A stretch of 64,000 nucleotides of DNA, taken from a virus (Duplodnaviria > Heunggongvirae > Uroviricota > Caudoviricetes). The position numbers were made by a program, and so were the translations under genes. Of this stretch, positions 1 through 35,343 are shown piece by piece. Each line of letters starts with the position of its first letter. Position 1 is the first letter of the stretch. The stretch is from IMG/VR virus record IMGVR_UViG_3300006143_000002; one strand, 5' to 3'. The notes beneath the pieces are model-generated. The model searched no databases and had not been told where the DNA came from. It saw only the letters and a list, made by a program, of their open reading frames with translations.

Positions 1-44
1 TAAAAAATTATAGATAGGCTTTATAACCTATCTATATCAACATT

Positions 45-617
45 CTAACTTTCAACATCTATATTATATTCTCCATAAAATTTATTTTTTATATCTTTTA
101 TAAATTTATTTTCTGCTGGTTTCTTTGTATATTTCATTTCAATTATTACTGTTTTAGATTCCAATTCAAAGATAGCACTACCTATATACTCTTTTAAAGT
201 TTCCTTATAGTCTAATTTGTAACTTCTTAAATAATCATCATCTACTTCATTTTGACTATATATCATTTTTAACTTTTCATATTCTACTATTGCTATATCT
301 AATGTACTTCCAATTTTATAACTAGGTGACCATATATTATTTCCTATATCATTATAATTTTTCCAAGCATCTTTTATACATATATTTATTCTATCTAATA
401 TAATACTACTATCAAATAAGGGTGTATCTAAATATAACTGATATACTTTCAATATATTATGTCTTATATCTCCTTCATCTCTATGGTCTTTTTTAAAAAA
501 ATGAATTGTATTATATGCCAACTCTGAATTTGGGTCTAAAGGTATTACAATACTATTTGTATTATCAGGAAAATCTTCTTTATTTATTCTATTGACTAAT
601 ACTTCATTAAATAACAT
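45..617 (-). CDS. hypothetical protein
   Basis: 190-aa minus-strand ORF, no recognisable motif. Confidence 0.4.
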   Translation of the reverse strand: MLFNEVLVNRINKEDFPDNTNSIVIPLDPNSELAYNTIHFFKKDHRDEGDIRHNILKVYQLYLDTPLFDSSIILDRINICIKDAWKNYNDIGNNIWSPSYKIGSTLDIAIVEYEKLKMIYSQNEVDDDYLRSYKLDYKETLKEYIGSAIFELESKTVIIEMKYTKKPAENKFIKDIKNKFYGEYNIDVES

Positions 618-844
618 TATACTTTCTTTCCCCTTTCTTTTATCCTTCTTTTCTTTCTCTCATGTTCTAATATTAGCTGACTATATTCTCTTATATTTTG
701 TGTATAGTGCATTACGTCTAATAATACATTCATTCTTTCTAATTTATGTTCTTCTGACATTGTTGTATCATATTTTATATTAGTGGCACTATCTTTTAAT
801 TTAGATAATATTTCATTAACAATTATCTGTGTATTATTTTCCAT
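617..844 (-). CDS. hypothetical small protein
   Basis: 75-aa ORF, start overlaps the stop of the downstream ORF. Confidence 0.3.
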   Translation of the reverse strand: MENNTQIIVNEILSKLKDSATNIKYDTTMSEEHKLERMNVLLDVMHYTQNIREYSQLILEHERKKRRIKERGKKV

Positions 845-918
845 TATAATCCTCCAAGATATAACTTTATATACTTTTACAATTAAATTCCCTAGAAATC
901 AATTCTGGTAATTCCTGA

Positions 919-1419
919 TTATCTTTCTTCCTCATCCTCTAATTCATTATAATACTCGTCTACTTTTCTTTTAAATTCTCTTTTAACTTTTGCCCTGTTA
1001 AATTTAGGTTTCTTTTGATTATCATATACAGGTATTATAATACAATCATCTAAATTAAATTCTAATGGTATATTTGCAATATCTATTTCTATTATACCAT
1101 CTTCTGATGTATTCAACATCTTTAATTTAAAATGTATTAATTCTTTATTTACAGCTTCTTTTTGTTCATCTGGTAATGAATGTAACCAATCATGATTATA
1201 TCTTTTTATCAATGCTCCATTCTCTATTGTTGCTTTTCCTCCTAAATGTTTTTCTTTTATATGGTGATATGTTATCTCATCCTGTTCTCTTCTATACCCT
1301 CTAATAGTTTTTCTTTTCTCTATTGGTATATATCTTATTCCTGCTTCTTCTATCATACATATCCTACCATAAATCTTTTCTAATCTTTTTCTAACAGATT
1401 TATTATCACTCATATACAT
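919..1419 (-). CDS. HNH endonuclease
   Basis: His-Me finger pattern YHHIKEKHLGG...N...NHDWLH (HH-x6-GG-x-N-x-NH-x3-H). Confidence 0.55.
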   Translation of the reverse strand: MYMSDNKSVRKRLEKIYGRICMIEEAGIRYIPIEKRKTIRGYRREQDEITYHHIKEKHLGGKATIENGALIKRYNHDWLHSLPDEQKEAVNKELIHFKLKMLNTSEDGIIEIDIANIPLEFNLDDCIIIPVYDNQKKPKFNRAKVKREFKRKVDEYYNELEDEEER

Positions 1420-1513
1420 TACCTCTATACTAAAAGTAGTGGTAATCCAAGTATTTATATCAGGGGGTGATTACTTGGAAACAGTCAACTGCTGTCCCAC
1501 TACTTATTATCTA

Positions 1514-1756
1514 TTATTTATTATCTACTATCTTGTTATTTATTATTTCGGTATAAAAATAGTCTAATAATTTTGATTGCACACCAACTCTGTACTCAAG
1601 ATTTTTAATATATTTTTGTCTTTCCATATCTTTTAAGTCAGATGATTTAGCTAATACAATACAAAATCCTAATACAATTATATTTATACATATTATTAGT
1701 TTAATTAGTATTCCCCAAGTAACTTCTCTATTTAACCATTTCTTTATACTATTCAT
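1514..1756 (-). CDS. small membrane protein
   Basis: 80 aa with one strong hydrophobic helix (WGILIKLIICINIIVLGFCIVLA). Confidence 0.35.
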   Translation of the reverse strand: MNSIKKWLNREVTWGILIKLIICINIIVLGFCIVLAKSSDLKDMERQKYIKNLEYRVGVQSKLLDYFYTEIINNKIVDNK

Positions 1757-1767
1757 AATATTACCTC

Positions 1768-4323
1768 TTATTTAACAAATATTAAAACTTTTCCATTTTC
1801 ATATTTTTGCATTACTATACCAAACTTTTCAAATGCCTTTTCTTTATTCTTTACTACTGTTCCATTACTTGTAGCTCTTACATGGTCTCCTGGCTTTAAA
1901 TCCATATCATCTGTTTTAACCCATATCTTACCTACTATACCAACTGGGCATTTTTCATCTTCTTCTAATTCTGCACCACCTAAACACATACCTATTGTAT
2001 TTGAACATATTCCAATTAGATTAAATAAATCTTCTTGTGTTTCTACTTTGTGTACTAATCCATCTTCTCTTAAACAAACTATATCCCCATATTCAATAAT
2101 TTCATCCTTATCTTTTCTAAATATTTCACCATAGTCATTATAAACAGCACCAAAAACTCTCTTTCCTGTTATATCTCCTTTTGCATCTATATTACCATTT
2201 TTATCTAGTGTTATTGGATACTTGTTGTCAGAGCCTTTTGGTCCTACATTTATACTTGTATTAGCATAGATATTGTTTACATTTTCTATATTATTGTTAT
2301 CCATATTTAAGTTTGTATTTATGTGTAATTTATCTTCATTATTCAAATGATAGATTTTATATGTTTTAGTACCATCTGTGAAATATAGGTTTGATGTTCC
2401 ACCCTGATTTTTGATATAAACATCTCCACCATTAAAATATCCATCTCCATCTGCTGTTATATTATTTTTTATATGAAGGTTTGTATCAATGTGTAATATG
2501 TTATTATTATGTTCATGCCATATTCTTGCTGTATTTGCTGCACTATTTCCTGTAAACTTAATTTCAGATATTCCTGTTGTATTCTTCAATTCCATATTTC
2601 CATTAGAATAAGCTGTTACACCATTATTACCATTAGTTCCACCAACTTTAATATAACTATTTGTACTACCACCATTCTCATCTCTTAGGAAAATTGTCCT
2701 ATCTGTTAGTTTTAAATCTACATTATCATCTTGATTACTGTCTAATTGTATTTCATTTCTTTTAAAATAATTATCATCATTTCCATCATCAGGTCCAAAA
2801 TACAATGTACCTATACATCTATTCCTTGCATTTTGCATATAGAATTGAGGATATACATTCATCCTAATTGTATCATTTGCAAGTATATTATAGAATTTAT
2901 TATTTAGGTCATATTCTTGTATTGTTTTTCCTGTTGTTGTATGTGCCTTTTGATTTGTACCATCTTTTATCAATTCCCACTCATGTTTTAAGTCTGGTGT
3001 ATTAGGGTCTGTCATTCTTAAAACATTACCTGTTAATCTTAATGTTGGAGCATTACTATCAAATCTTTTCATATAAACATCATTATATGCTTCTAACTTA
3101 ATATCCCCACTACCTGATTCAATACATATACCTTCTGGGTTATGAATATGGAATATATCATCTTGAAAATTAGAATATATTTGAGCATGGTTCATATCAA
3201 TTTCTACTTTAGAATTTGATGCATATATTTCGATTGCTTCTGTTACATCACCTATACCATATATAACTCCAGTTTTTCCTACTAATTTCTTCTCGCCTTT
3301 TACTAAATCTGGTCTAGAACCTTGTACATAATTTCTTAATAATTCTATATCTTTTTCTGTTAAATCACCTTGTCTATTTCCACTAACACAGGCTAGTTCT
3401 TTTTCTAATGGTGTTGGTGTTTTTACACCATTTACAAAATCAGTCAATAATGCTAAGTCAGCGTCATTTATCTCACCATCATTATTTATATCACCATATC
3501 TCATTAATGTAGCATTTTCTAATGATGATGCTTTTAACACCATTTTAGTAGTATTCTTATCATAAGCTCTTAATATAAATCCAGGCATTGGGTCTTGATA
3601 TGGAGATGGATGTGCTCCTCTTCCTGGAACTACATTGATTTCACCATAACAAACATCCCCTTCTTTAGAGAAATACCAGTCTGGAACTTTATATAACCAA
3701 CTTTGTAAATCCATATAATAAACATCAGCATGTTTTGGGTCTTTTATATAACATCCAACATCTTCTGCTTCTATTCTGGAATACTTTTGAGGGTCTTCCT
3801 CTATATTTGTAAAATCATTACCATCCCATTCTATACTACCTAAATAAAGCATATCTGGGTCTTCATTTCCCTCATCTAATCTTTCATTATAATAAGTTAA
3901 ATACATTCCTTCAAATGTTTTTTGTACACCTACTGTTAAATCTCCTAGTACATTTCCTTTTAATTTATATTTTCCAACTGTAAAATCTCTTCCTAGATTA
4001 TCTCTTCCTAATTTAAAAGCAACATACCATTTACCTGCCTCTGCTGGAGGGTCTATTTGAATTGGTACTGATGCTATAATATCCATACCATTAATAGATG
4101 CCTCGCCTTCTGATATTTGTAATACAGTTTTATTTGTTTTTATATCATTTTCAGCACTCAATACAAAACTTGGATTTTTAATACAGAAATTCTTTTTTGC
4201 AACTCTGGTTACAAATCTTGCTTCATTAAATTCTGTATGTAATTTACCAAAATCTTTAGCATTTGATGATGGAAAACAAGTTATATTTTCTCCATCATAA
4301 TATGATACTGGGTTCTTTGCCAT
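1768..4323 (-). CDS. tail fibre / tail spike protein with an internal dockerin type-I module
   Basis: 851 aa with G/N/T-rich beta-repeat composition. Residues ~277-335 read GDINNDGEINDADLALLTDFV...SGNRQGDLTEKDIELLRNYV, a duplicated Ca-binding loop plus helix. A conserved late motif lies upstream at 4368..4389. Confidence 0.6.
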   Translation of the reverse strand: MAKNPVSYYDGENITCFPSSNAKDFGKLHTEFNEARFVTRVAKKNFCIKNPSFVLSAENDIKTNKTVLQISEGEASINGMDIIASVPIQIDPPAEAGKWYVAFKLGRDNLGRDFTVGKYKLKGNVLGDLTVGVQKTFEGMYLTYYNERLDEGNEDPDMLYLGSIEWDGNDFTNIEEDPQKYSRIEAEDVGCYIKDPKHADVYYMDLQSWLYKVPDWYFSKEGDVCYGEINVVPGRGAHPSPYQDPMPGFILRAYDKNTTKMVLKASSLENATLMRYGDINNDGEINDADLALLTDFVNGVKTPTPLEKELACVSGNRQGDLTEKDIELLRNYVQGSRPDLVKGEKKLVGKTGVIYGIGDVTEAIEIYASNSKVEIDMNHAQIYSNFQDDIFHIHNPEGICIESGSGDIKLEAYNDVYMKRFDSNAPTLRLTGNVLRMTDPNTPDLKHEWELIKDGTNQKAHTTTGKTIQEYDLNNKFYNILANDTIRMNVYPQFYMQNARNRCIGTLYFGPDDGNDDNYFKRNEIQLDSNQDDNVDLKLTDRTIFLRDENGGSTNSYIKVGGTNGNNGVTAYSNGNMELKNTTGISEIKFTGNSAANTARIWHEHNNNILHIDTNLHIKNNITADGDGYFNGGDVYIKNQGGTSNLYFTDGTKTYKIYHLNNEDKLHINTNLNMDNNNIENVNNIYANTSINVGPKGSDNKYPITLDKNGNIDAKGDITGKRVFGAVYNDYGEIFRKDKDEIIEYGDIVCLREDGLVHKVETQEDLFNLIGICSNTIGMCLGGAELEEDEKCPVGIVGKIWVKTDDMDLKPGDHVRATSNGTVVKNKEKAFEKFGIVMQKYENGKVLIFVK

Positions 4324-4367
4324 TTGATTACCTCCTTTAATTTATATACAATCTATGTATTTTATTA

Positions 4368-4389
4368 CCTCATTAATATTTTACCAAAA
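4368..4389 (-). promoter_or_regulatory. conserved late-gene motif TTTTGGTAAAATATTAATGAGG
   Basis: Follows a terminator hairpin, ~40 nt upstream of the AGGAGG-ATG of the 851-aa tail-fibre gene. Confidence 0.45.
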
Positions 4390-4420
4390 TAAATAAGGGC
4401 TTATTTGCCCTTATTCAAAT
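4388..4420 (-). terminator. rho-independent terminator
   Basis: AAGGGCAAATAAGCCCTT hairpin plus a T-tract, after the stop of the 4411..4875 gene. Confidence 0.5.
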
Positions 4421-4875
4421 CTTATTTTTAAATCTTCTATTACTGTTCCTATTAAATAATTATTTGTTATTGCAGAATTAGTTACTTGAGAACCATTTGC
4501 ATAGTACACTGGTATTTCAGAAATGAAATTAAACTTTGCAAGTATTGTATGATTATTCATTTTATGTGCAGTATAATCTGAAAATGTAGATTCTTTTAGA
4601 ATAGAATGATTAGCACCTCCGTATGCAGTTTCAAATATATAACCACCTAAAGAATGTCTAATACTTCCACCAAATTTTTCTATAATTATATTATTTATAT
4701 TATACATACTTTTATCTACAACAATAAATATATGTATTGACTTTCTCAAAGATGTAACATATCCTGAAACAAAATAACTATCTGAAATCAAATAGTCATT
4801 TGGTTTATAATATAAATCGTCAATTAACTTATTATATTTTTCTTCTAAATTATTGTTTTTACAATTTGGTATCAT
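4411..4875 (-). CDS. small tail-associated protein, MIPxCK paralogue 1
   Basis: 154 aa, N-terminus MIPNCK shared with the two downstream ORFs, otherwise divergent. Confidence 0.45.
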   Translation of the reverse strand: MIPNCKNNNLEEKYNKLIDDLYYKPNDYLISDSYFVSGYVTSLRKSIHIFIVVDKSMYNINNIIIEKFGGSIRHSLGGYIFETAYGGANHSILKESTFSDYTAHKMNNHTILAKFNFISEIPVYYANGSQVTNSAITNNYLIGTVIEDLKIRFE

Positions 4876-4891
4876 AATTATATATTCCTCC

Positions 4892-5344
4892 TTATTTCCA
4901 TTTTCCTATTGCCATATATCCGATGGCACAACTTACATATTCGCTTAAAGGACCATTTCTTTGTACTACAACTCTTCCTGGATTTTCTGGTGTACTTCTA
5001 AATTGTGGTAAGTATTGTGTTATATATGTTAAATCAGATGATGGATTATAATCAAAATTATATATATTCCAAAATATTTGTGGTCTATCAAATACATCTA
5101 TATCACTTTTAAAGGGTACTATAAAATTCTTGAATCCTATTGACATACTTCTATACCCCACATTAGTTACCATATCTGTTGTAATCCACCCATTCCATTT
5201 ACAATTTATAATTAAATCTCCATTATCATATTTTCTAGCTCTTTGTTTTTCAATTAAATCTTTACCATTAGAATCAACTTCTGTCCACTCTTTTACTATT
5301 TCTTCATAAGAATTGCTATCACCTATCTTACAAAATGGTATCAT
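4892..5344 (-). CDS. small tail-associated protein, MIPxCK paralogue 2
   Basis: 150 aa, N-terminus MIPFCK, RBS GGAGG upstream. Confidence 0.45.
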   Translation of the reverse strand: MIPFCKIGDSNSYEEIVKEWTEVDSNGKDLIEKQRARKYDNGDLIINCKWNGWITTDMVTNVGYRSMSIGFKNFIVPFKSDIDVFDRPQIFWNIYNFDYNPSSDLTYITQYLPQFRSTPENPGRVVVQRNGPLSEYVSCAIGYMAIGKWK

Positions 5345-5376
5345 AGTTATTATAATCCTCCTCTGACTTGCTGTAT

Positions 5377-5817
5377 CTATAAAACTTTATATCCATAAAC
5401 AGCATGTATTTTATTTAGATTTAAGTCCTCATCTGTTATTTCTTGTCCTTCTCTTTTTCTTCTATTAAATAATATAGTTATTGTTTTTCCTTTTTCATCA
5501 TTCCATTTTCCTTGAATACAAGCAAAATATACATAATTACTTCTTAACTGTGTTACATTTAATACTACCTCATTATCTTGCCATAAAGAATTACTATGCC
5601 AACTAGGGTTATACCAAGTTGATACATTTATTGATTTTGATATATCCCCTACTACTGCTGCTAACCAATCAAATCTTATAAAATCATAATCAATCATAGG
5701 TTTATCTAATACAAATATACTTCCCTCTTGTGCAGGTGCAGCACCAGTAGAATATAATATTTCTTGAGTTATATTTCCCTTTGATAGATTTATATTCCTT
5801 TTACAAAATGGCATCAT
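5377..5817 (-). CDS. small tail-associated protein, MIPxCK paralogue 3
   Basis: 146 aa, N-terminus MMPFCK. Confidence 0.45.
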   Translation of the reverse strand: MMPFCKRNINLSKGNITQEILYSTGAAPAQEGSIFVLDKPMIDYDFIRFDWLAAVVGDISKSINVSTWYNPSWHSNSLWQDNEVVLNVTQLRSNYVYFACIQGKWNDEKGKTITILFNRRKREGQEITDEDLNLNKIHAVYGYKVL

Positions 5818-5829
5818 CTCAATAACCTC

Positions 5830-8028
5830 CTAAATTAATCTATTACATCTATCATAAACTATCCTCATATAATTTCTACCACTTCCATCACTTTTAGCTT
5901 CATTGCTGTCTGCTGTTACATATTCTATATATTGAGAAAAGTTCTCTACTATATTGTTTGTATGGTCAAACTTAACATCATTATTATCAAATGAACCATA
6001 ATCATTTACCTGTTTCTTTGTTGCTACTATTCTATCATACCAATTAGCATAAGGGTATTGTGTTCTTAATATAGTTGTTCCTCTTACTACATTATTTGGT
6101 TGATTATTCCATACTACACCATAAGTATTCCTTACTCTATTTATTAATGCTTTAGAATTATTATAATGTGTTGCATATATTATATCTCCTCTAACTGGTG
6201 TAAATGATGCTGGTGTTATTGTAAATGTTCTAACATTACTCCATTCACTCCAATTATTTTTATCACCTGTATATTTCTTTTTAACTCTTACTCTCAATCT
6301 ATATGTTGTTGCAATAGGAAACCCTGATGCTTTAAATGGTGCAAATATCATTTTCCTTTGATATGTTAAATTACTTGCTAATGCACTTGATATAGATGCT
6401 GCTTGTGTACCTGTTGCTGTCTTACCTGCTGGGTCAGATGTTAATCTGAATACTTTATTATTTACTTCTATTTCTATATCATCATAATGATATGTTTCTA
6501 ATTCAGAACCTTTATCTGGGTCTGCTGGTAATTGAAAACATACTCTAAATTTTGTATTTATCCAATCAGAACCTTCTATTGGATATGTTATTGATGGTTT
6601 TGCTAATCTAGCAGCCATTACAACAAAATCACATTGAGTAGGAGATGTGAAATACCAATAATTACTTGCATAAGCTGGATTTGCTAATTGAGCTTGGTCA
6701 TTTCCAAAATAAGGTGTTATATCTACTTTAGTATGTTGCATTTTTGGTATATCTGCTTTTGGTATTACAAAACTCTTACTTGTTGTATAATATGTTTTTA
6801 CTACTGTTCCTGCTTGATTATATAATCTTATTCTATATCCTTGTGTATAACCAGCATCTGCTGTTGTTGTATCATATACCCAACTTAAATATATTCCTGT
6901 CAAACTGGTATCATTTATTACTAAATCGTCTTTACCTATTCCACTTCCACTTGAGTTATTTTTTCTATATGAAAGATTACCACAAGTTACACCTTTTAAT
7001 GGTTTATATATTACTTTAAAGGTGCAAGTCTTTTCTGCACTTTCCCAATTTGCTGAGTTATTTCTTCTTTTAACATGCATTGTTATTATTTGATTATCAT
7101 AAGCTTTTGGTACAAATCCTCTTAAATTTGCTCCACTTAAAGTAAATGTAGAATTATTACCTGCTGTTCCTACTTGTGTCCAAGCATTTCCTATATTTAC
7201 ACCACTATATGAACAATGTGCTAATGTGTAGAATTGTTGTTCTAGTGCTGCCCAAGCTCTATCATTAATTCCTGATTGTGTAAATGTTATTGTTTGATTT
7301 TGTGCATTTACAGCAGTAGGATTTGCAGATACACCTGTTATAGTAGGTTCTTGATATGTATAAAATGTTTTATGTCCTGTTTGATATTCTGCATGACCAT
7401 CACTAAACCTTATCCTAACATTATAAGAACTTCCATGTCTAAACCCATCACCCCAAGTTGGATAGAAACTACCCCATAAAGAATCTCCCTTACCATTTCC
7501 AAAACCAAAATCTCTTACACCATCTACTCTTGCTATTACCCAACCAAGTCCATTAGTACCACCATTTATCTTATAGTTTACATCTACTTTATCTCTATCT
7601 ACTTTTACTATTTGAGTAGCACTCCATATATCATAGGCAGGAGGAGAATATGGGTCTGGTACATATAATGTTAAAGAGCCAATAGTTACAGGTCCTCTTA
7701 GATTGGCAGAACAATGTCTTCCATTTGTAATATCAGGACATTCCATAGTTACTGAAATTGTATGATTTCCAGCACCTACATTTAAAGAACCTGACATAGA
7801 TATTCCACCACCAACCATTGCAACTGTTGTACTGCCAACCTGGTTACCATCTATGTAAAGTCTTACTGTATCTGACATTGAAGAGTGACCTGATGCAGTT
7901 AATACTTGATTTCCACTGAAAGAAGCACTTATGGTTAAACCTGAATAATTAGCACTTAAAGTTCCAGATACTTTTCTTCTAGGTGCTCCACCAGTATGCC
8001 AACCATTATCACACCAAACATCTGCCAT
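5830..8028 (-). CDS. tail fibre / structural protein (Ig/FN3-like, S/T/G-rich)
   Basis: Start moved to the internal Met (MADVWCDNG). The ORF-track N-terminus overlaps a terminator and the late motif. RBS AAGGAG precedes the ATG. Confidence 0.5.
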   Translation of the reverse strand: MADVWCDNGWHTGGAPRRKVSGTLSANYSGLTISASFSGNQVLTASGHSSMSDTVRLYIDGNQVGSTTVAMVGGGISMSGSLNVGAGNHTISVTMECPDITNGRHCSANLRGPVTIGSLTLYVPDPYSPPAYDIWSATQIVKVDRDKVDVNYKINGGTNGLGWVIARVDGVRDFGFGNGKGDSLWGSFYPTWGDGFRHGSSYNVRIRFSDGHAEYQTGHKTFYTYQEPTITGVSANPTAVNAQNQTITFTQSGINDRAWAALEQQFYTLAHCSYSGVNIGNAWTQVGTAGNNSTFTLSGANLRGFVPKAYDNQIITMHVKRRNNSANWESAEKTCTFKVIYKPLKGVTCGNLSYRKNNSSGSGIGKDDLVINDTSLTGIYLSWVYDTTTADAGYTQGYRIRLYNQAGTVVKTYYTTSKSFVIPKADIPKMQHTKVDITPYFGNDQAQLANPAYASNYWYFTSPTQCDFVVMAARLAKPSITYPIEGSDWINTKFRVCFQLPADPDKGSELETYHYDDIEIEVNNKVFRLTSDPAGKTATGTQAASISSALASNLTYQRKMIFAPFKASGFPIATTYRLRVRVKKKYTGDKNNWSEWSNVRTFTITPASFTPVRGDIIYATHYNNSKALINRVRNTYGVVWNNQPNNVVRGTTILRTQYPYANWYDRIVATKKQVNDYGSFDNNDVKFDHTNNIVENFSQYIEYVTADSNEAKSDGSGRNYMRIVYDRCNRLI

Positions 8029-8058
8029 ATATATAATCTCCTTTCTATAATACTTATT

Positions 8059-8080
8059 ACTCATTAATATTTTACCAAAA
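8059..8080 (-). promoter_or_regulatory. conserved late-gene motif
   Basis: TTTTTGGTAAAATATTAATGAG directly after the terminator of the upstream gene, 25 nt before the AAGGAG RBS. Confidence 0.45.
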
Positions 8081-8112
8081 ATAAAGACTACATTATTTGT
8101 AGTCTTTTTCAT
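8080..8112 (-). terminator. rho-independent terminator
   Basis: AAAGACTACAAATAATGTAGTCTTT plus ATTTTTGG, after the stop of the 8116..8868 gene. Confidence 0.5.
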
Positions 8113-8115
8113 ATT

Positions 8116-8868
8116 CTATAAATCTATCCAACTTGAGCCATTGTATTGTTTTACTGTTATATCTTGTCCATTTCCACTTTTTAATCCTATGGTTTCCCAA
8201 GTACCATTTACTAATTGTTTTACTGGGCTTGGTTGATATTTTGGTATATTAAATGTAAATCCATTTCCTACACCACCTCCAGGATTCCAATAACCACCCC
8301 AGCTAGTGTACCATACACCATAGTTACCAAAATGTAATGTAGTATTTCCTGATGTTTCCTGCATAGTCCATGTTTCTGTAAAATATCCACTTCCATCTCT
8401 GCCTATATTTTGAGCATCTCCGTGAATATTATATTGTGCTTCCCCACCATTTTTAGCTGCATAACAATATACTCTCCAATGATAATAAGTTTCTGTTGTA
8501 CCACCTACATTGTTCCACCACCACTCATACTTTACAGATAAAGTTTTATCATTTGCAGCACTTCTAGTTGCTGTTACTTTAAATGAATTTACTCTAAATT
8601 CTCCTGGAGATGGTTGTGCTGGATTAGGATTAGACATAAAAGCATTTGATGTCCACCTATTTGCACTAGGCTCTCTACACCATCCACCATAGTTTTCAGC
8701 AACCCACCACCAATCAGATGGTTGGTGTCGTCCTACTTTAGCATACCCAGTTCCTGGTCCGTTTCTAATTCTTAATATACTTGATACATCATAAGTAGTT
8801 GTAGACGCATGATTATGATAATGTGTATAACCTGTTGCTCCAAAACTTGTTACCTCTTCTAAAGCCAT
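8116..8868 (-). CDS. Gly/Trp/Tyr-rich tail-tip (putative receptor-binding) protein
   Basis: 250 aa, W/G/Y-rich, lies 3 nt upstream of the 733-aa tail gene in the same operon. Confidence 0.4.
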   Translation of the reverse strand: MALEEVTSFGATGYTHYHNHASTTTYDVSSILRIRNGPGTGYAKVGRHQPSDWWWVAENYGGWCREPSANRWTSNAFMSNPNPAQPSPGEFRVNSFKVTATRSAANDKTLSVKYEWWWNNVGGTTETYYHWRVYCYAAKNGGEAQYNIHGDAQNIGRDGSGYFTETWTMQETSGNTTLHFGNYGVWYTSWGGYWNPGGGVGNGFTFNIPKYQPSPVKQLVNGTWETIGLKSGNGQDITVKQYNGSSWIDL

Positions 8869-8880
8869 ATTATCTACCTC

Positions 8881-11706
8881 CTACTTTGTTACTATCCATA
8901 TATCACCATTTGCTGCTCCTGATGGTGTACTACTCTGTATAAATACTTTTCTACCATTTACAGTCAGATTTGTTGTATTTGTAGTTGTAAAATATCCAGT
9001 ACTATATCTTGCAGCAGATGTTCCTATTGCATAAGTATTATTTGCAGATGGTGTTAATGCTCTTGAAGTAATTGTTCCTGTCATTGTTCCCCCAGAAATA
9101 GGTAAGGCTTCTGTTCCTGTACTTCTAGTAATAGCAAAATTAGATATATTACCTGTTCCGTCAAAAGTTACACTTGCTACTGCTGTTTTAGTAACTACTT
9201 TACTATTTTCTAATGTTGTTGAATATTCTCCTGTTGGTATAGAAATAGTTGTATTATCTGCTGCGTCTGCAATACTTCCATTTATTCCAACTAATTGTAT
9301 TCTATTGTTAGCATCTCTATATGCTATATAAAAAGGTCTGTCATTTTTATTATAATAGTTATTAGTTAATCTTTTCTTAAAATCATCTGTAAGCGTTCCA
9401 TTAAAATATAATATTTCATCAACTTTAGTATAATCAGGTTTAATTGTAACTGTATTCGTTCCACTATCATCTGCTATAGCAAAGTCAACAAAGTTCAAAT
9501 TCTTTCTAAATGCTACATTTGAATTATTGTTTTTTATATCTCTTCTTAATTTAGTTGCTATGTTATCATAACCATCTTGTGTAAATTCCATAGTCAAATC
9601 AAAATTCTTTGTACCATCTGTTTTTAGATTTGTACTTTTTGTTGCATTTATTGAAACATCTCCATCAGTACTTCCTACTGTAAATTCTTTTGTTAATTTA
9701 TCAACTGTTGCTCCTGCAATATGTCCTACTTTATCTGTAACTACTATTTTATTTTGTGGAATATCTGCACCTATTGTATAATCTATATAATCTTCTGATA
9801 TTGCTTTTACATCTGCAGGTGTTAATGTAATACTTTCTCCTGACTTACCATTTACAGATTTTACACTTACACCTAAATCAGCTCTATTCCAACTCGAATT
9901 ATAATAATAAATCCAATCTCCTACTTTATAATTCTTTCCACCAAAAGTATTTGCTGTTGTAACTAACCATGCCTGTGATTCTTTAGGTGTTGCTGATGGA
10001 GCTCCTCCACCATCCCAATTTCCCATTATCCTTACTGCTTTTGTCAATCCTTCTGGTAATTGAGATTCTGGAACTATTCCGTTTACTAAACTTGGTATTT
10101 TAACACCAATATCACTAGGAGTTAATACTGCTGCAGAACCGTCAAGTGTAGTTGTTATTTTAAAACTATTTTTAGATGTATCTAATTTTGCATTTCCTTT
10201 TACTGCACCTGTTATTTCAAATGCAATCTCATGGTCTAATTCTTTTGCATTATAAGCAGTTGTTGGTAAATTTCCATCTGTATCTAATTTCAATGCTTTT
10301 CCTGAAGTTGGTGTATCTGATACTATATTAGAAGCATCTGTTGACATTGTTAAAGATAATTTATCATAACCGAATAAAACTTCTCCAGTAATATCTCCTT
10401 CTAATTTAAGTTTAGTATCGTGGTCTAAATCACTTGCTGTTAAAGCATTTCCTGGCAAATTCTTATCACTATCTACAAGTAATGCTTTTCCTGGAGTTGG
10501 AGATGTTGTAAACATATCATTTAATAAATCTTCTGTTTCTTTCTTATTGTAGTAATTTGATAAATCTTTACCTGCAGCTCCTTCTAATGCATCTAATCTA
10601 TCTGTTATATCTTTATGCTTATGCTTATCTGGGTCTATTGTTAAAGGTATTGTTGTATTTGTATTATTGATAACTGTTCCTTGTCCTGTTGCTCCTCCTG
10701 TAAATGCTAATATAAAATTATCTGTACTCAATGTAAATTTCTTTTTAGATGCTGACCATATTATCTTTGCACCTTTATATTCCATATTAGTTAATTTATC
10801 AATCATTTCTTGTAAAGCATTTGATTTAGCAACTGTACTAAAATCTGATATATCTGCTGCTTTATGAACATGTGATTTTAGTGCAAAATCTGTAGCATGT
10901 AATCCATCTAATTTATCTACATTAAAATTAAATGTAGCTGGTAGTGTACCATCTGCTTGTCCTTGCACAAGTTTATTATATATTGCTTCTCCAGATAATT
11001 GTAAATTTTCTAATTGTAAATTTCCTTCATGCCATACTTTATATCTATGTGCATCTGTCTTATATGGATTATTATCTAATGAAGGTCGTTCATTATAATC
11101 TACAAATATTTCATTATTTAGTACATTCCATTCTCCTCTTATATATGCAGTAGATTGGTCATCTATATATAACTCACCTTCAGATGAAAAAGAACCATTT
11201 GGAAGTATTCTTACCCCTCCACCTAAATAAGAAGATAGCACAAGATTATCATGTTTATCACTTACATATAATCTACCTTTGATTATTCTGTTTGCATCTC
11301 TTATTACTACTGAACCATCTCGTAGTAATCCATTATTATCTACTATTGTCGGATTTTGGTCATCTAAATATACTTCTTCTATGAAATCATGGTCTGTTCT
11401 GTATGCACTTGGATACTTATTATCAGAATATATACAAATCCACCTATTCATCCATAGCCACAATGAATTACTCTCCCAACAATAATATGTAATACCCATT
11501 TCTGGTATTATATTATTTTGTAAATCATTAACTGTATCTACTCCAACATATCCATATAATGTTCTTTTTGAATCAGATTCATCATACCATAGTTGTAGTG
11601 TATCTAGGCACATATACATATTATACTTATTACATTTAGTTCCTAGCAAATCATAATTATTCAATCTAATTATTTTATTTATTGTTGGTGTTGTAACTGA
11701 TGCCAT
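8881..11706 (-). CDS. tail fibre protein
   Basis: 941 aa, T/S/G/N-rich repetitive beta composition typical of phage fibres. Late motif and RBS upstream. Confidence 0.55.
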   Translation of the reverse strand: MASVTTPTINKIIRLNNYDLLGTKCNKYNMYMCLDTLQLWYDESDSKRTLYGYVGVDTVNDLQNNIIPEMGITYYCWESNSLWLWMNRWICIYSDNKYPSAYRTDHDFIEEVYLDDQNPTIVDNNGLLRDGSVVIRDANRIIKGRLYVSDKHDNLVLSSYLGGGVRILPNGSFSSEGELYIDDQSTAYIRGEWNVLNNEIFVDYNERPSLDNNPYKTDAHRYKVWHEGNLQLENLQLSGEAIYNKLVQGQADGTLPATFNFNVDKLDGLHATDFALKSHVHKAADISDFSTVAKSNALQEMIDKLTNMEYKGAKIIWSASKKKFTLSTDNFILAFTGGATGQGTVINNTNTTIPLTIDPDKHKHKDITDRLDALEGAAGKDLSNYYNKKETEDLLNDMFTTSPTPGKALLVDSDKNLPGNALTASDLDHDTKLKLEGDITGEVLFGYDKLSLTMSTDASNIVSDTPTSGKALKLDTDGNLPTTAYNAKELDHEIAFEITGAVKGNAKLDTSKNSFKITTTLDGSAAVLTPSDIGVKIPSLVNGIVPESQLPEGLTKAVRIMGNWDGGGAPSATPKESQAWLVTTANTFGGKNYKVGDWIYYYNSSWNRADLGVSVKSVNGKSGESITLTPADVKAISEDYIDYTIGADIPQNKIVVTDKVGHIAGATVDKLTKEFTVGSTDGDVSINATKSTNLKTDGTKNFDLTMEFTQDGYDNIATKLRRDIKNNNSNVAFRKNLNFVDFAIADDSGTNTVTIKPDYTKVDEILYFNGTLTDDFKKRLTNNYYNKNDRPFYIAYRDANNRIQLVGINGSIADAADNTTISIPTGEYSTTLENSKVVTKTAVASVTFDGTGNISNFAITRSTGTEALPISGGTMTGTITSRALTPSANNTYAIGTSAARYSTGYFTTTNTTNLTVNGRKVFIQSSTPSGAANGDIWIVTK

Positions 11707-11755
11707 TCTACACTCTCCTTTACATAATAAAAAATATTAATGAGGTTTTACATTT

Positions 11756-11777
11756 CCTCATTAATATTTTACCAATT
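11756..11777 (-). promoter_or_regulatory. conserved late-gene motif, part of an inverted repeat
   Basis: TTGGTAAAATATTAATGAGG. A second AATATTAATGAGG copy at 11733..11745 on the other strand forms an inverted repeat ahead of the 941-aa fibre gene. Confidence 0.45.
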
Positions 11778-11789
11778 TTGTATATTCAA

Positions 11790-12605
11790 CTAATTACCTA
11801 ACTTTTCATTCATTTTAGAAGATAAATCTGTTATCAGACTTATAGTAGCCTTCATGTCTAATATTGATATTGCAATATGGTCTAACCAACTTTTCATTTT
11901 ATTATATTCTTCATCTGGTATTCCATACTGTCTATACATATCATCCAATTTTAATTTTAAAAGACTTATATATATTGTAGCATTACCTTGTATCTCTTCT
12001 ATATCTTCGTCTGTTTCTGGTGTATTCTTGTTTGTACTAGATATATCATCTATGCTTAATTGTTTTTCTGTTTCTTCCTCTATATTAAGTTCCCTTGCTA
12101 AATCCTCTCTGTGTATATATTCTATCTCAATACTAACATCATAATCTTCTAATGCAGTTATCAAAGCATTTAATACCCATACAACCTCACCACTATATAC
12201 TGCTGTTATATATTTTGGTTCTCCCATAGGTGTTCTAAATATCTCTAACATACTATTCTGGTTATTTTTATACACATTACTTCTTATATGAATTGGTTCC
12301 GTAAATAGTTTCTCTGAAAAACTTGTATTTGTTTTACCTCCCCAGCTTAATATCATATTTCCTAATGCTATATTAAATTTTGTTTCGAATGCCTCCCAAT
12401 TATTTTCAGTTGCTTGTTCAATCTCATAGCTAAATGAGTTAATAACTTCTCTTGCTAATGATGCCCAAGTTGTTGGTTGTCGTCTAACTAATTTTTGTTT
12501 ATTTCCACAAAAACATTTTAATCCCAACACCTTTGTATAATTATAACCTTCAATATCAAAATTAAACTCATTTGGTCTAATTATTAAAAATTTACTATTT
12601 TCCAT
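11790..12605 (-). CDS. hypothetical protein
   Basis: Start set at MENSKF after RBS GGGGAGG. A TTGACA-17-TAAAAT promoter and a late-motif variant lie upstream. Confidence 0.4.
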   Translation of the reverse strand: MENSKFLIIRPNEFNFDIEGYNYTKVLGLKCFCGNKQKLVRRQPTTWASLAREVINSFSYEIEQATENNWEAFETKFNIALGNMILSWGGKTNTSFSEKLFTEPIHIRSNVYKNNQNSMLEIFRTPMGEPKYITAVYSGEVVWVLNALITALEDYDVSIEIEYIHREDLARELNIEEETEKQLSIDDISSTNKNTPETDEDIEEIQGNATIYISLLKLKLDDMYRQYGIPDEEYNKMKSWLDHIAISILDMKATISLITDLSSKMNEKLGN

Positions 12606-18361: not shown

Positions 18362-20818
18362 TTATACTCCTCCATTTGCATAATATTCATTTCTTAATGA
18401 AATAATATTATCTTTTTTCCTTAGTTCAACTATCTTACTGATATTTTCTTTACCAATATTAATATTTTCTTTTATATTTTCACAAGTATAACCTGTTTCT
18501 GTTCTAGTTTTTATTTGTTTTTGCATAATTATACTTTCACCATCTTCTGCTAGTTCACATTGTTTTAAATCAGATAATTTTACAAAATCATTATTTATAT
18601 TATCTAATATTTTCATATACTCAACACATTTATCATCATATTTATCTTTAATAAATTTATAAAAATAATTCGCAGTTGCATTATATAGTTTTCTTAATTC
18701 TACATTTTTACCATTCATAGTCATTTCATAAACAGTCCTCATAGACTTCCAAAAAGAATAATAACTAAATTTAAGCTTTGTCATAAATGTTCCACATTCA
18801 ATTACAACGCCTTCTATATCTGTGTCTATTAATTCATTTTGATTTTTATGTTGTTCATAAAATTCAGTTAATTGCCTATATGTATCAAATTTAATATATA
18901 CTTGCTTATAATCTGTATCTTTTAATTTTAACGATTTAGCAATTTGCATTAATCCATCATAAGGTATCTTCTCAAAATCTACTTTATTATGAATTATATC
19001 TAATAAGACAACTCTACTTTCTTTTTCATCTATAATATGAGGGTCATTTTCTAAATCTATAACTTCAAATGTCATTGACATATTATTATTTTTTAGAAAT
19101 ACTGTAATATTGTCTATTTGTTCTTCTGTAAATGTATTATAAAATAAATTTTTAAAATACATTGCATATTCTCCACAATTTGAAGATTTACTATGAAATT
19201 GTAAATTATCATTATAATAACTTAAAATGCCCAAGAAACCATTATATTTTTTATAAGCAACAACTTCTTCATCTGTATCAAATAATCTCTTTAAATTAAA
19301 TAATCTACATGATTCTTGTTCGTTTATATTAAAGAACTTTTCATAACCTCTTGCTACTATTTTATTATTTACAGTATCTATAAATAAACCTCTTGCTTTA
19401 ACAGTTTCCTTATCCCATTTATCTTTTTCAAATGCTTTACGTGTAAAGTTGAATGATGATATTCCACCTTCTAATACACTTTCTCTTATATTTCTATTAT
19501 TTCTTAATCTATCTACAATATTTTCTATATTTATTTCTTGTGTATTTACTATTTGTTGGTGTTCTTCCCAAGATGTATCCCTATATAAGTCATTTTTTAT
19601 ACTATGGAAAAATATACCCTTATTTGTTAATTCTGCTACTTTTAGATTTCCACCAAATTCAACACCATCCTCTAATGAGAATGATAAAGGTAAATCTCTC
19701 ATTGGTTTTTCTGGTGCAATATATCTATGTCCGTGTATTTGTATTATTGATTTATTTTTCATGTTTTCTGTATATGATTCGTCAATAGGGAATTTGAAAG
19801 CTCCAACACCATGTATCATTTGACTTGTTGATATTAAAGGTAAATTATTTGGGATAGTATTCAATCCCCCATGACATACAAAATATGTTTGTCCTTTAAA
19901 GTTTATATAAGCCATTTGTCCTAGTTTTCTATAAAACTTTCTCATACTTGATGGGTCTATTGATTTAATTTGTGGTAATGTAAAGTTCATAAATTCTTTA
20001 CTTTTAATCTCGCTATCCAGTTCATTTGCCCAATACCAAATAAATCTTTCATGATTTCCTTCTAATAAAAGTACATTACTTTTTTGACATATACTAATAA
20101 TAAATTCTAATACTTCCTTATTTTGTAGTCCTCTATCTAAATAGTCCCCTACAAATATATAAGCATCTTCATCATTTAAAAATTGATGTAAATTTTGAGA
20201 ATTTACTTCTTCTTGATATTCTGTATATGTTTGTTTTAGTATATATTCTTTTAATGGGTTAAAACAACCATGAATATCTCCTATAATATGTATTCTTTTA
20301 TACTCATTAAAATCAAATTCTTTATTACTAAATGTTTCCCAAAACTTATCTCTAGGAATATCTACCCAACCACTTGTCTTTTCTTGAGTTTCAAATCTTG
20401 CATACATTTTATCAATTACTTCATCAGGAACTCTTTTATAGGCATTTCTTTGATGATTTCTTTCTATACATACTTCTTTTGGTACATCTGTAAATGATAC
20501 TACATACTTTCTATATCTATATGATTCACATAATGAATTATATCTACTAAAATCTGTTGAACGGCTATGTGTTGCATCTATTATAGTAAAATCTCCATTT
20601 TTCATTCTTTTCTCTAATAATTCATATAATAATGACCATATATAAGATTCATTTTCTTGTGATATAGTTGCATCTGTTCCATTTTCTGTCAATATTGGTG
20701 CAGATGCCATCATTCTTATATTATCTGGGCTTATTGTATATTGCTCTAAACCATTTTCTTTTATCCAGGTTGATTTACCTGAACCTGGGCATCCCCTTAA
20801 AACCACTAAATTTCTCAT
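18362..20818 (-). CDS. pnkp: trifunctional polynucleotide kinase / metallophosphatase / RNA ligase (bacterial Pnkp-like)
   Basis: P-loop GCPGSGKST. Calcineurin-like motifs GDIHG, GDYLDRG, GNHE. C-terminal covalent nucleotidyltransferase motifs I KYNG, III TFEVID, IV EGVVIE, V KLK in order. Start set at MRNLVV after RBS GAGAGGTAGG. The ORF-track N-terminal extension overlaps the promoter. Confidence 0.75.
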   Translation of the reverse strand: MRNLVVLRGCPGSGKSTWIKENGLEQYTISPDNIRMMASAPILTENGTDATISQENESYIWSLLYELLEKRMKNGDFTIIDATHSRSTDFSRYNSLCESYRYRKYVVSFTDVPKEVCIERNHQRNAYKRVPDEVIDKMYARFETQEKTSGWVDIPRDKFWETFSNKEFDFNEYKRIHIIGDIHGCFNPLKEYILKQTYTEYQEEVNSQNLHQFLNDEDAYIFVGDYLDRGLQNKEVLEFIISICQKSNVLLLEGNHERFIWYWANELDSEIKSKEFMNFTLPQIKSIDPSSMRKFYRKLGQMAYINFKGQTYFVCHGGLNTIPNNLPLISTSQMIHGVGAFKFPIDESYTENMKNKSIIQIHGHRYIAPEKPMRDLPLSFSLEDGVEFGGNLKVAELTNKGIFFHSIKNDLYRDTSWEEHQQIVNTQEINIENIVDRLRNNRNIRESVLEGGISSFNFTRKAFEKDKWDKETVKARGLFIDTVNNKIVARGYEKFFNINEQESCRLFNLKRLFDTDEEVVAYKKYNGFLGILSYYNDNLQFHSKSSNCGEYAMYFKNLFYNTFTEEQIDNITVFLKNNNMSMTFEVIDLENDPHIIDEKESRVVLLDIIHNKVDFEKIPYDGLMQIAKSLKLKDTDYKQVYIKFDTYRQLTEFYEQHKNQNELIDTDIEGVVIECGTFMTKLKFSYYSFWKSMRTVYEMTMNGKNVELRKLYNATANYFYKFIKDKYDDKCVEYMKILDNINNDFVKLSDLKQCELAEDGESIIMQKQIKTRTETGYTCENIKENINIGKENISKIVELRKKDNIISLRNEYYANGGV

Positions 20819-20836
20819 AAAATTTCCTACCTCTCT

Positions 20837-20865
20837 GTTTTTGTTTATTATATAATAAGTTTTAA
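20837..20865 (-). promoter_or_regulatory. consensus promoter (extended family member), drives pnkp
   Basis: Reverse complement reads CTTGACATATTTTAAAACTTATTATATAAT. Confidence 0.6.
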
Positions 20866-20881
20866 AATATGTCAAGTATTT

Positions 20882-23902: not shown

Positions 23903-23977
23903 TGGCAGGAGTGCTAGGATTTGAACCCAGACAAACAGTTTTGGAGACTGCTGTGCTACCATTAACACTACACTCCT
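23903..23977 (-). tRNA. tRNA-Trp (anticodon CCA)
   Basis: 75-nt cloverleaf folded by hand: 7-bp acceptor AGGAGTG/CACTCCT, D-stem GTGT/GCAC, anticodon stem GCAGT/ACTGT with loop CTCCAAA, T-arm CTGGG-TTCAAAT-CCTAG, discriminator G and encoded CCA. Confidence 0.65.
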
Positions 23978-23986
23978 ATATAGGGT

Positions 23987-24062
23987 TGGAGCTTCATATT
24001 GGATTCGAACCAATGGTCACAGATTTGCAATCTGTTGCCTTAACCAACTTGGCTAATGAAGC
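23987..24062 (-). tRNA. tRNA-Cys (anticodon GCA)
   Basis: 76 nt: acceptor GCTTCAT/ATGAAGC, anticodon stem ACAGA/TCTGT with loop TTGCAAA, T-arm ATTGG-TTCGAAT-CCAAT, encoded CCA. Confidence 0.65.
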
Positions 24063-24086: not shown

Positions 24087-24875
24087 CTACTCTTCTTCTG
24101 GTACTAATAAAAATTTATCTATAAAATCTCTATCTTTATTAAATAATGGTATTTCTGTATCACAGAATATTCCCTCATCTTTTCTATATACACAAAATCC
24201 TCTTTTCCATTTAGTTTCTAAATTATTCCAATTTATATTGTACTTTTCCATTAACATATCTTGTATATCACTTGTATTTTTCTTATCAAGTTGTTTTTGA
24301 CTAAACTTTGATTGTCCTAGTGATTGTATTGAGTTTCTTGATGCATCTTGTTGCCTCCATAAAAAGTAATTACATACATCTTCCTTTGGTATATTAAATG
24401 CTCTTGCATCAAACATTGCTATACCCATTTTCTTTTGCCATTTATTAAATAAGTCTAAATTCTCTGGTTCATCTGAATTTGCATAACCAGACCAAGCTAA
24501 TACCTTTTGTGTTACAAACTTATTAAAATACATTGTTGCTGCTGATGCTATTACTGAACATACCTTTTGTAATCTATAATCAAAATAACTATCAGTAGTT
24601 AATTTATCCCAGTCTGTTAATAATAAACTTATCTCATCAGACTGTGTATATGCTAACTTGCACCCTTGAACACTCAATATAAGATTTTCACAAACATATT
24701 GCATTACTTGTGATAGTATTTCATCAAATGGTTTATCTAAACCTCTTGTAAATGTGTGGAATGCTTTACCATCTATTCTTACTATAACAGGTGTTCTTTT
24801 TGTAAGTTTAACATCTGATACAGATTCATAATCTTTCATTCTATCACTTAATGTTTTTATCTTTGAATTTGACAT
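24087..24875 (-). CDS. thg1: Thg1-like protein (tRNA 3'-5' nucleotidyltransferase, TLP)
   Basis: Collinear matches to the Thg1 family: VIVRIDGKAFHTFT, KPFD, LAYTQSDEISLLL, FDARAFNIPKEDVCNYFLWRQQDASRNSI, KYNINWNNLETKWKRG. Confidence 0.8.
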   Translation of the reverse strand: MSNSKIKTLSDRMKDYESVSDVKLTKRTPVIVRIDGKAFHTFTRGLDKPFDEILSQVMQYVCENLILSVQGCKLAYTQSDEISLLLTDWDKLTTDSYFDYRLQKVCSVIASAATMYFNKFVTQKVLAWSGYANSDEPENLDLFNKWQKKMGIAMFDARAFNIPKEDVCNYFLWRQQDASRNSIQSLGQSKFSQKQLDKKNTSDIQDMLMEKYNINWNNLETKWKRGFCVYRKDEGIFCDTEIPLFNKDRDFIDKFLLVPEEE

Positions 24876-25057: not shown

Positions 25058-25861
25058 CTATATTGTAAAATCATAATTTAAAGCTTTCTCATTTATATCT
25101 ATCAACCATTTATTTATTTTATGATAATCTGGTGTCTTTTGTAATGTACTTTCATCATAGTATTGGTGTATCTCTTTATCTAATCTGTCAAACATATCAA
25201 ATATTTCTTCTAATGTATATTTTCCTGCTCTTATATCTAATAATAATTTTCTCTCTTCTTCTGGTCTGTAAGAACAATAATCATGTGTTAATAATATTTG
25301 TTTTGCACAATATAGTAATCTTATAGCATGATAAGCAAATTTAGTATCATAACCAAATTTTTCAACTAAATCTTGTCTGCCAGTTCCATTTTGCTTCTTT
25401 ATATCTAGTTTATACCTTTGTGACATTGCAAATCCACAAAACTTTTTATATATTTCCTTAGATAAAAATTCTTTTCTTATACTTCTTAACTCTTTTCCAA
25501 AATCATCTATATGAATTATATCTTCATCTCTACAAAATAGTATATCAATATTATTTGGTACACCTTGCATAGCGTCTCTAACAAATTTATTTATATGGCA
25601 TATTACTATATCAATATCTTCTTTTGTATTATGTTCTCCAAAATTTTTACCACCAGACTTATTATATTCATTTATAGATTTTAATCCTAAATAATATTCT
25701 TTTGGTGGAATACATACACCCTTATAATCAGTATCAGATGTTTCTACATTTGTTCCATATATAACTGAACCTGCTTTAGTTAATAATATTGTTCTGTCTT
25801 CCAACCACATCATATTATCTGGTAGAACATGTTCTATATCTTTAAAACTAACTTTTGCCAT
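25058..25861 (-). CDS. Pol-beta-superfamily nucleotidyltransferase (RlaP / PF10127-like, RNA-repair-associated type)
   Basis: GSVIYGTNVETSDTDYKGV matches the hG[GS]...SDxD nucleotidyltransferase signature. 267 aa. Adjacent to the Thg1-like gene. Confidence 0.5.
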   Translation of the reverse strand: MAKVSFKDIEHVLPDNMMWLEDRTILLTKAGSVIYGTNVETSDTDYKGVCIPPKEYYLGLKSINEYNKSGGKNFGEHNTKEDIDIVICHINKFVRDAMQGVPNNIDILFCRDEDIIHIDDFGKELRSIRKEFLSKEIYKKFCGFAMSQRYKLDIKKQNGTGRQDLVEKFGYDTKFAYHAIRLLYCAKQILLTHDYCSYRPEEERKLLLDIRAGKYTLEEIFDMFDRLDKEIHQYYDESTLQKTPDYHKINKWLIDINEKALNYDFTI

Positions 25862-34859: not shown

Positions 34860-34872
34860 CTATTTTTATTTA

Positions 34873-35259: not shown

Positions 35260-35264
35260 TTATT

Positions 35265-35339: not shown

Positions 35340-35343
35340 ATAT

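Follow-up and report, generated by a model that had tools for sequence, protein, structure and literature searches.

Cohesins and dockerins form some of the tightest and most specific protein-protein pairs known and, to our knowledge, have so far been seen as a means by which bacteria and archaea build extracellular complexes. A dockerin, as defined here, consists of two tandem segments of ~22 residues, each made of a 12-residue Ca-binding loop (ligands at positions 1, 3, 5, 9 and 12) followed by a helix. In C. thermocellum Xyn10B (type I dockerin; 1OHZ_B / 2CCL_B) and other cellulosomal proteins the module sits at the end of a secreted enzyme. Here we describe a dockerin in a tail fibre, or receptor-binding protein (RBP), of an uncultured jumbo phage; its gene lies in a stretch of 64,000 nucleotides from the IMG/VR record IMGVR_UViG_3300006143_000002 (Caudoviricetes), the whole of which we will henceforth refer to as the window. 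Unlike the cellulosomal dockerins, the fibre dockerin is internal, its segments are asymmetric and, in the window's clade, its second loop is degenerate; the virion protein that carries it is synthesised in the cytoplasm and lacks an evident secretion signal.

Other phage proteins resemble this fibre in part. The pre-neck appendage gp12 of phi29 has a similar C-terminal domain by both hidden Markov model (HMM) and fold comparison, with the predicted cleavage Asp aligned, but its attachment domain and shaft are unlike those of the fibre and it has no dockerin. The Ig-like domains of T4 Hoc and the BACON and carbohydrate-binding module (CBM) domains of gut phages follow the same proposed logic, in which a binding module of host type is carried by a structural protein. 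Whereas the ligands of those domains are glycans or mucus, that of a dockerin is a specific protein module, bound in a Ca-dependent manner and typically with nanomolar or tighter affinity.

A dockerin within a tail fibre

An earlier note, made from the letters of the window, had placed a type I dockerin module at 3319-3495. On the minus strand, this interval encodes residues 277-335 of an 851-aa open reading frame (ORF). Its translation reproduced the quoted peptide exactly (GDINNDGEINDADLALLTDFVNGVKTPTPLEKELACVSGNRQGDLTEKDIELLRNYVQG), and both of the checks that the note had proposed for the module itself, a Pfam search and a structure prediction, bore out the assignment. Specifically, residues 276-333 matched positions 1-56 of the 57 in the Dockerin_1 profile (PF00404) with a score of 26.0 bits (gathering threshold 22.9; E = 1.1e-5), and the same family was matched by every one of the 36 full-length fibre homologues in our alignment (best E = 6.2e-14). 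A profile of the dockerin segments in turn detected solved dockerins, namely the Clo1313_0689 double dockerin (1e-15), CelD (2e-12), Xyn10B (1e-11) and CelS (4e-9), which ranked well above troponin C. Matches of the homologues to EF-hand_7, EF-hand_5 and EF-hand_6 were far weaker than those to Dockerin_1 (the ones individually checked fell below the cut-offs), and the window fibre matched no EF-hand family at E ≤ 1. AlphaFold2 (AF2) predicted a dockerin fold with three helices (287-297, 305-311 and 323-333); block means of the predicted local distance difference test (pLDDT) were 72-91 for the module in the full-length model and somewhat lower in a 352-aa model, and the structural neighbours of the modelled module were dockerins and not EF-hand proteins. 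Given the Pfam and profile matches, the textbook loops of distant homologues and the three-helix model, we regard membership of the dockerin family, by sequence and predicted fold, as secure.

The note describes two Ca-binding loops, of which only the first is canonical (Table 1). In all six frames of the window, D-x-[DN]-x-[DN]-G-x-[IVL]-x-x-x-[DE] is matched by loop 1 and nowhere else. Loop 2 is degenerate: Cys, Gln and Thr replace the acidic ligands at positions 1, 5 and 9 and there is a 2-residue insertion, while the helix of segment 2 is kept. Two textbook loops, DVNRDGVIDxxD and DVNHDGVIDEKD, are present in homologues with 35-40% overall identity. The helices are asymmetric as well: the exposed positions of helix 1 vary, E/D-K-D, N and Y/F of helix 3 are retained in both clades, and contact positions 10/11, which vary in segment 1, are E-K in segment 2. 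Judging from the alignment, this asymmetry between the two halves makes a dual binding mode unlikely, and the retention of polar helix 3 residues between clades that are just 35-40% identical points to selection on the module.

From N to C terminus, the fibre consists of a shoulder domain, a Pro-rich linker with a hairpin, the dockerin, a second linker, a beta-rich shaft and tip, and a chaperone that is predicted to cleave itself off. Its only two Pfam matches were Dockerin_1 and Peptidase_G2, the latter described as "IMC autoproteolytic cleavage domain" (IMC, intramolecular chaperone), and no PHROGs family was assigned to it. The N-terminal domain was modelled as a beta-sandwich shoulder like that of the RBPs of the lactococcal phages p2 and 1358, of TssK from the type VI secretion system (T6SS) and of gp42, a tail fibre in the solved baseplate of HFTV1; sequence identity to these proteins is just 7-11%, and model confidence is low at aa 18-30 and 184-273. 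Shoulders of this fold anchor trimeric fibres on baseplates. The label "tail fibre" in the earlier note is thus supported: the N-terminal domain resembles RBP shoulders, TssK and the HFTV1 fibre, the C terminus carries an IMC domain of the phi29 gp12 type, the neighbouring genes are large fibre-like ORFs, and the portal gene is ~8 kb away.

Table 1 Coordinates of the fibre gene, its parts and the frame break found in related phages
Feature	Residues	Position	Strand	Basis or remarks
Dockerin-bearing tail fibre / RBP, complete ORF	1-851	1768..4323	-	851 aa + stop, from ORF list
N-terminal domain, predicted RBP-shoulder/TssK-like baseplate-attachment module	1-233	3625..4323	-	most conserved part of the family
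Pro-rich linker (GRGAHPSPYQDPMPGF) and beta-hairpin	234-275	3499..3624	-	AF2 strands 249-255 and 258-264; low pLDDT
Dockerin module, type-I-like three-helix fold	276-333	3325..3498	-	Pfam and predicted fold
Canonical Ca-binding loop 1, DINNDGEINDAD	278-289	3457..3492	-	sequence
Degenerate loop 2, CVSGNRQGDLTEKD	312-325	3349..3390	-	alignment with the clade keeping DVNHDGVIDEKD
Linker after the dockerin, low confidence	334-352	3268..3324	-	pLDDT <50 at 336-352 (352-aa model) and 337-344 (full-length model)
Beta-rich shaft and presumed distal receptor-binding region	353-729	2137..3267	-	all-beta AF2 model; most variable part, column identity ~0.50
Intramolecular chaperone, predicted cut N729/D730 (VYN/DYGEIF)	730-851	1771..2136	-	Pfam and Foldseek
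Frame break in sister lineage		L007:7910-7930; L008 and L009:2955-2975; L010:4697-4717; also L011		unbroken window equivalent 3616-3627 (-), CCA GGA AGA GGA

An optional cassette and its possible partners

A protein identical to the window fibre is found on 7 metagenomic contigs, the longest of 217,435 bp, and a search of 5.8 billion proteins gave 107 clusters of homologues, all of them metagenomic and many on contigs of 175-226 kb. Neither positions 1-12000 of the window (megablast) nor the fibre protein (tblastn) had a match in a set of 50,697 deposited phage records. The dockerin is present in 64 of the 107 clusters and absent from the other 43, all of which keep the N-terminal domain (40-53% identity) together with a related shaft and IMC. 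The breakpoints are clean: in a blast comparison with the dockerin-less homologue P0053, residues 1-268 of the window fibre aligned with 1-247 and residues 364-850 with 255-728, and in two relatives with syntenic surroundings the fibre that has the dockerin (L012) differs from the one that has none (L052) by exactly aa 250-326. What is missing from the dockerin-less relatives thus corresponds to aa ~270-333 of the window fibre plus the following linker (aa 334-352). Because carriers and non-carriers are interleaved when clustered on the N-terminal domain by the unweighted pair group method with arithmetic mean (UPGMA; not a rigorous phylogeny), these sequences suggest repeated gain, loss or exchange of the cassette. 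Its optional presence fits a module of use on some hosts and useless on others.

We favour the reading, to which we assign a probability of roughly 45%, that the dockerin is an accessory, Ca-dependent adhesion module that works outside the cell, most likely by binding cohesins on the host surface. Its role would be accessory, not that of the primary receptor-binding domain, since the cassette is optional and adjoins the conserved proximal domain, away from the distal end. In structural terms, a dockerin of ~58 aa is inserted, with flexible linkers on both sides, between the virion-proximal shoulder and the variable shaft. Dockerin folding requires Ca2+, and free Ca2+ is very low in the bacterial cytoplasm, so a dockerin on a protein assembled there would become competent only after lysis. 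We thus envisage that the fibre would be assembled in the Ca-poor cytoplasm and that the dockerin would load Ca2+ and fold after lysis (with one canonical site in this clade and two in the sister clade). It would then plug into cohesins on the host envelope, carried by anchoring scaffoldins or other cohesin-bearing surface proteins, with up to three dockerin copies per trimeric fibre engaged. A virion so held at the cell surface could make specific receptor contact through the distal tip and the neighbouring 941-aa fibre. The identity and predicted fold of the dockerin, the domain order, the optional presence of the cassette and the phage context come directly from the analysis, whereas in this scheme the cohesin partner and its location, the Ca switch and the trimeric stoichiometry are what we infer.

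Several observations weigh against host-surface adhesion. The scanned window ORFs and the flanks of relatives yielded no cohesin partner (see below), and the degeneration of loop 2 is fixed in the window's clade. The dockerin is conserved about as much as the virion-attachment domain (column conservation 0.67 and 0.70, respectively, versus ~0.50 for the shaft), as would be expected of a constant partner or a structural role more than of a receptor arms race. It also adjoins the virion-proximal domain near the baseplate, away from the distal tip where receptor contact is usually made. The GC content of the window (25-31%) is well under that of Ruminococcus and Acetivibrio, the classical hosts with cellulosomes or amylosomes; this is a weak argument against these producers as hosts, as phage GC can fall far below host GC and low-GC clostridia with cohesins exist. 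Finally, no partner is known for many of the dockerin-like modules that occur outside cellulosomes.

This last point would also suit a dockerin with no partner at all, i.e., a small Ca-binding spacer or hinge that, once the virion is outside the cell, makes the shoulder-shaft junction stiffer or sets its orientation. We consider this unlikely, if a reading to be reckoned with. It would agree with the low-confidence linkers that flank the module at a domain junction, with its being dispensable in 43 relatives, and with its being kept in the window's clade after one Ca site had decayed. However, a monomeric three-helix domain would be an odd spacer in a trimeric fibre, and the module has been retained, with its full dockerin fold, across 64 clusters that share only 35-40% identity. 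Together with the conservation of exposed polar residues in helix 3, this retention suggests a binding surface.

Alternatively, the surface could serve within the virion, as a docking site for a cohesin-like module of the phage itself that hangs an accessory protein on the fibre or latches the fibre to the baseplate or sheath, comparable to the T4 fibres that are held by whiskers. This we hold to be somewhat less likely again. The dockerin lies beside the baseplate-attachment domain and is equally conserved; its helix 3 surface residues are conserved across distant phages, as they would be for a constant phage partner; and in a sister lineage a gene break just upstream would place it near the N terminus of a separate fibre protein. 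Moreover, most of the proteins encoded nearby could be assigned to no family, so that a divergent cohesin may have gone unnoticed. On the other hand, the search of the phage proteome that the earlier note had proposed revealed no Pfam cohesin (PF00963) in the 41 scanned ORFs of the window (lengths from about 110 aa upwards), nor was there one among the precomputed Pfam hits of genes called in contigs with identical window proteins or of those within 10 kb of the fibre in L012 and L052. This search covered ~30% of the genome, and a divergent cohesin-like fold would escape Pfam.

Further evidence speaks against a docking site within the virion. The N-terminal domain was modelled as an RBP-like shoulder and not as a cohesin, and the 43 related fibres without a dockerin belong to similar phages of ~200 kb. 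In the one dockerin-less neighbourhood compared, that of L052, the local gene order is the same as that of a carrier, and comparison of local gene content revealed no carrier-specific gene common to the window and L012. Assembly in the cytoplasm would also face very low free Ca2+. A phage-encoded cohesin is therefore disfavoured, and the note's alternative, that cohesin-dockerin pairs assemble the fibre components, found no support, given the lack of a Pfam cohesin in the scanned ORFs of the window, the non-cohesin N-terminal domain and the 43 dockerin-less fibres.

Directly upstream of the fibre gene are three weakly related paralogues of ~150 aa (4411-4875, 4892-5344 and 5377-5817, minus strand), which start with M(I/M)P(N/F)CK, are 25-31% identical to one another and have no Pfam match. 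Their copy number varies: there are three in the window and two in L001 and L003, whose fibres are 100% identical to that of the window. These proteins are of about cohesin size, and we considered them as partners; we rejected them as they match no Pfam family, share little identity with one another, and have no counterpart of such size directly upstream of the fibre in L012, a distant carrier of the dockerin.

The weakest explanation, a chance Asp/Asn-rich motif or generic EF-hand, could appeal to a Pfam score just 3 bits over the cut-off in the window and to the weak EF-hand_7, EF-hand_5 and EF-hand_6 matches of homologues, but is refuted by the 36 Dockerin_1 matches out of 36, the profile matches to solved dockerins and the predicted fold.

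The chaperone, the frame break and the phage genome

The C-terminal 122 aa of the fibre are predicted to be a folding chaperone of the phi29 gp12 type that removes itself by cleavage between N729 and D730. The Peptidase_G2 IMC match (35.1 bits against a gathering threshold of 25) spans aa 684-787 and begins upstream of the predicted cut. Foldseek aligned the domain with the C-terminal fragment of phi29 gp12 (3gqh_A; E = 6.8e-5, template modelling (TM) score 0.56), and D730 (DYGEIF) aligned with residue 1 of this crystallised fragment (DFAEYF), with an E-value of just 0.17. We take residue 1 of 3gqh_A to be phi29 D692, the first residue after self-cleavage. Across the family, Y728 is invariant and N729 nearly so. 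In one homologue, P0124 (923 aa), which falls into the 90% cluster of the window fibre, the last five residues of the fibre and its stop codon are lost, and the frame reads on into the downstream ORF for an 80-aa membrane protein (window 1514-1756) to give a fusion.

Several homologues also matched families of capsid cement proteins in this domain. Phage_cement (PF22758) was matched near the cut-off in 7 of the 36 aligned homologues, always within the C-terminal domain that also matches the IMC, and was not matched by the window fibre in Pfam; matches to Phage_cement, Phage_cement_2 or XM1_gp53_minor_capsid were seen in the C-terminal domains of P0004, P0014, P0038, P0040, P0041, P0088 and P0094. 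In Foldseek, the domain also resembled the base of phi29 gp8.5 and the decoration proteins of Pam3, BB1 and HFTV1, which suggests that fibre autochaperones and cement proteins have a common fold or a common origin. We considered whether the protein might be a head fibre and set this aside as unlikely, as the cement-like matches are confined to the C-terminal IMC domain and the N-terminal domain resembles baseplate RBP shoulders.

In a sister lineage with fibres 65-79% identical to that of the window (L007-L011; five independent assemblies with four distinct sequences), the reading frame is broken upstream of the dockerin by one extra C immediately after VVP: these genomes read GTA GTA CC(A/T) C GGA AGA GG, and the window reads GTA GTT CCA GGA AGA GGA. 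Frame 0 continues as CGG-AAG-AGG and stops after 10-11 codons to give a shoulder-only protein of 244-249 aa, while the +1 frame continues as GRGxxPSPYxDPMPGF and then as the dockerin fibre. The codon CGG occurs in none of the 12,961 codons of the window ORFs, and the CGG at the junction is the only one among the called genes of L008, L009 and L010. The +1 frame of L007 lacks a start codon upstream of MVLKASS, yet PGYILRAYDKNTTK is preserved there with only synonymous changes relative to the window. From its sequence, the break looks like a hungry-codon +1 frameshift site. Alternatively, it may be a true split into two genes with termination and reinitiation, as the stop of the first ORF lies 9 nt before an ATG in L008-L011. 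The only other CGG codons in the called genes of L007 (L007:4216 and L007:11257) are both near ORF 3' ends, one of them two codons before the stop of ORF 10939-11262, which overlaps ORF 11219-11578; these may be further frameshift sites.

A structural protein encoded upstream of the fibre also differs in its ORFs. It is a single ORF of 792 aa in L052 (L052:7542-9920), two ORFs of 262 and 525 aa with a 26-nt overlap in L012 (L012:7560-9900), and two adjacent ORFs of 250 and 760 aa in the window (5830-8868, minus strand), which may be another frame break or a fusion polymorphism. The 250-aa protein of the window (8116-8868, minus strand), between two large fibre-like ORFs, has an N terminus that looks SH3b-like by eye (ILRIRNGPGTGYAKVG) and, after it, a Trp/Gly-rich segment of ~130 aa; it has no Pfam match and no blastp-detectable conservation with its L012 counterpart.

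The source of the window is an uncultured jumbo phage of ~217 kb with a T4-type portal and lysis genes of Bacillota type. Essentially all long ORFs of the window lie on one strand. The T4-type portal, located ~8 kb from the identical fibre on the 217,435-bp contig, is closest (~27-31% identity) to deposited portals of Streptococcus, Bacillus and Listeria phages with genomes of 124-222 kb. The endolysin has an Amidase_2+SH3 architecture, and relatives carry GH25/CW_7/LysM lysins. Endolysin relatives occur in mouse and rabbit gut bins labelled Clostridia, Clostridium and Clostridiaceae, which may be largely made of phage contigs, and the sole match from a cultured organism is in Fervidicella (37%). 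Based on the portal relatives, the lysis genes and these bin labels, the host is a Gram-positive bacterium (Bacillota), probably a low-GC gut member of the Clostridia. From cohesin binding by the dockerin, the note had deduced a clostridial host of cellulosome type; a clostridial host is probable, and no cohesin-bearing host emerged from the analysis.

The window also encodes an NAD ligase, a sigma-70 region-4 protein and eight tRNAs. The tRNA genes lie at 23903-24062 and 34768-35793, and one of them (34872-34945) has a two-base anticodon according to ARAGORN. A set of RNA-repair and tRNA-related ORFs (18362-20875, 24087-24875, 25058-25861, 38821-39498 and 62381-63229, minus strand) comprises a fusion of kinase, phosphatase and T4 RNA ligase 1, two Thg1-like proteins, RlaP and a HAD_SAK_2 'Swiss army knife' domain. 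The NAD-dependent DNA ligase is apparently split (29705-32565, minus strand) into a 70-aa ORF (31482-31694) and a 543-aa ORF (29705-31336) with ~146 nt between them. The former corresponds to a 67-aa ORF of the near-identical L042 that weakly matches Nlig-Ia, and the adenylation-domain match of the latter begins only at profile position 65. Immediately upstream is an ORF resembling a GIY-YIG/NUMOD3 homing endonuclease (31672-32565).

Precedent and implications

The domain and the type of protein are each known, and their combination is so far undescribed. A full-text literature search revealed no paper that describes a dockerin in a phage fibre; incidental mentions were a "dockerin" gene in Vibrio phage VvAW1, another in a brine-pool jumbo phage, and dockerin domains on a viral contig associated with anaerobic methanotrophic archaea (ANME). 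When a canonical dockerin of the fibre family was compared by tblastn with the 50,697 deposited phage records, we obtained four weak matches, none in an annotated fibre. Three are in unannotated phage contigs from human faeces, and the only one with a named host is in Ruminococcus phage NatCom_28274 (PV036439.1, 538-1626), with 43% identity over the dockerin. The latter protein is unannotated and has 362 aa with a C-terminal dockerin. Its gene lies at the end of the 59-kb phage genome; the protein is no fibre and, apart from the dockerin, bears no relation to the window fibre. A scan of IMG/VR with the dockerin alignment yielded 8 matches, all in the same fibre family; the search pattern is specific to this family and thus uninformative on other viral dockerins.

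A broader and more speculative proposal is that gut jumbo phages of one large, uncultured family have taken over the cohesin-dockerin system: an exchangeable fibre cassette would plug into the cohesins of host scaffoldins and so tune host range, and the CGG frameshift of the sister lineage would set the ratio of shoulder-only protein to full fibre. We regard this proposal as a whole as doubtful. If the cassette does act in this way, the specificity of the dockerin could predict the host.

A natural phage fibre with a swappable dockerin would be the first viral use of the cohesin-dockerin system that our literature search found. Should the partner be a phage protein, it would represent a new way of assembling virion appendages. 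Should it be a cohesin on the host surface, it would constitute a protein receptor of a new class for phages that infect Gram-positive anaerobes of the gut; cohesin arrays would then offer a biochemical handle for assigning hosts to uncultured jumbo phages, and the fibre would provide a natural template for plug-and-play phage retargeting.

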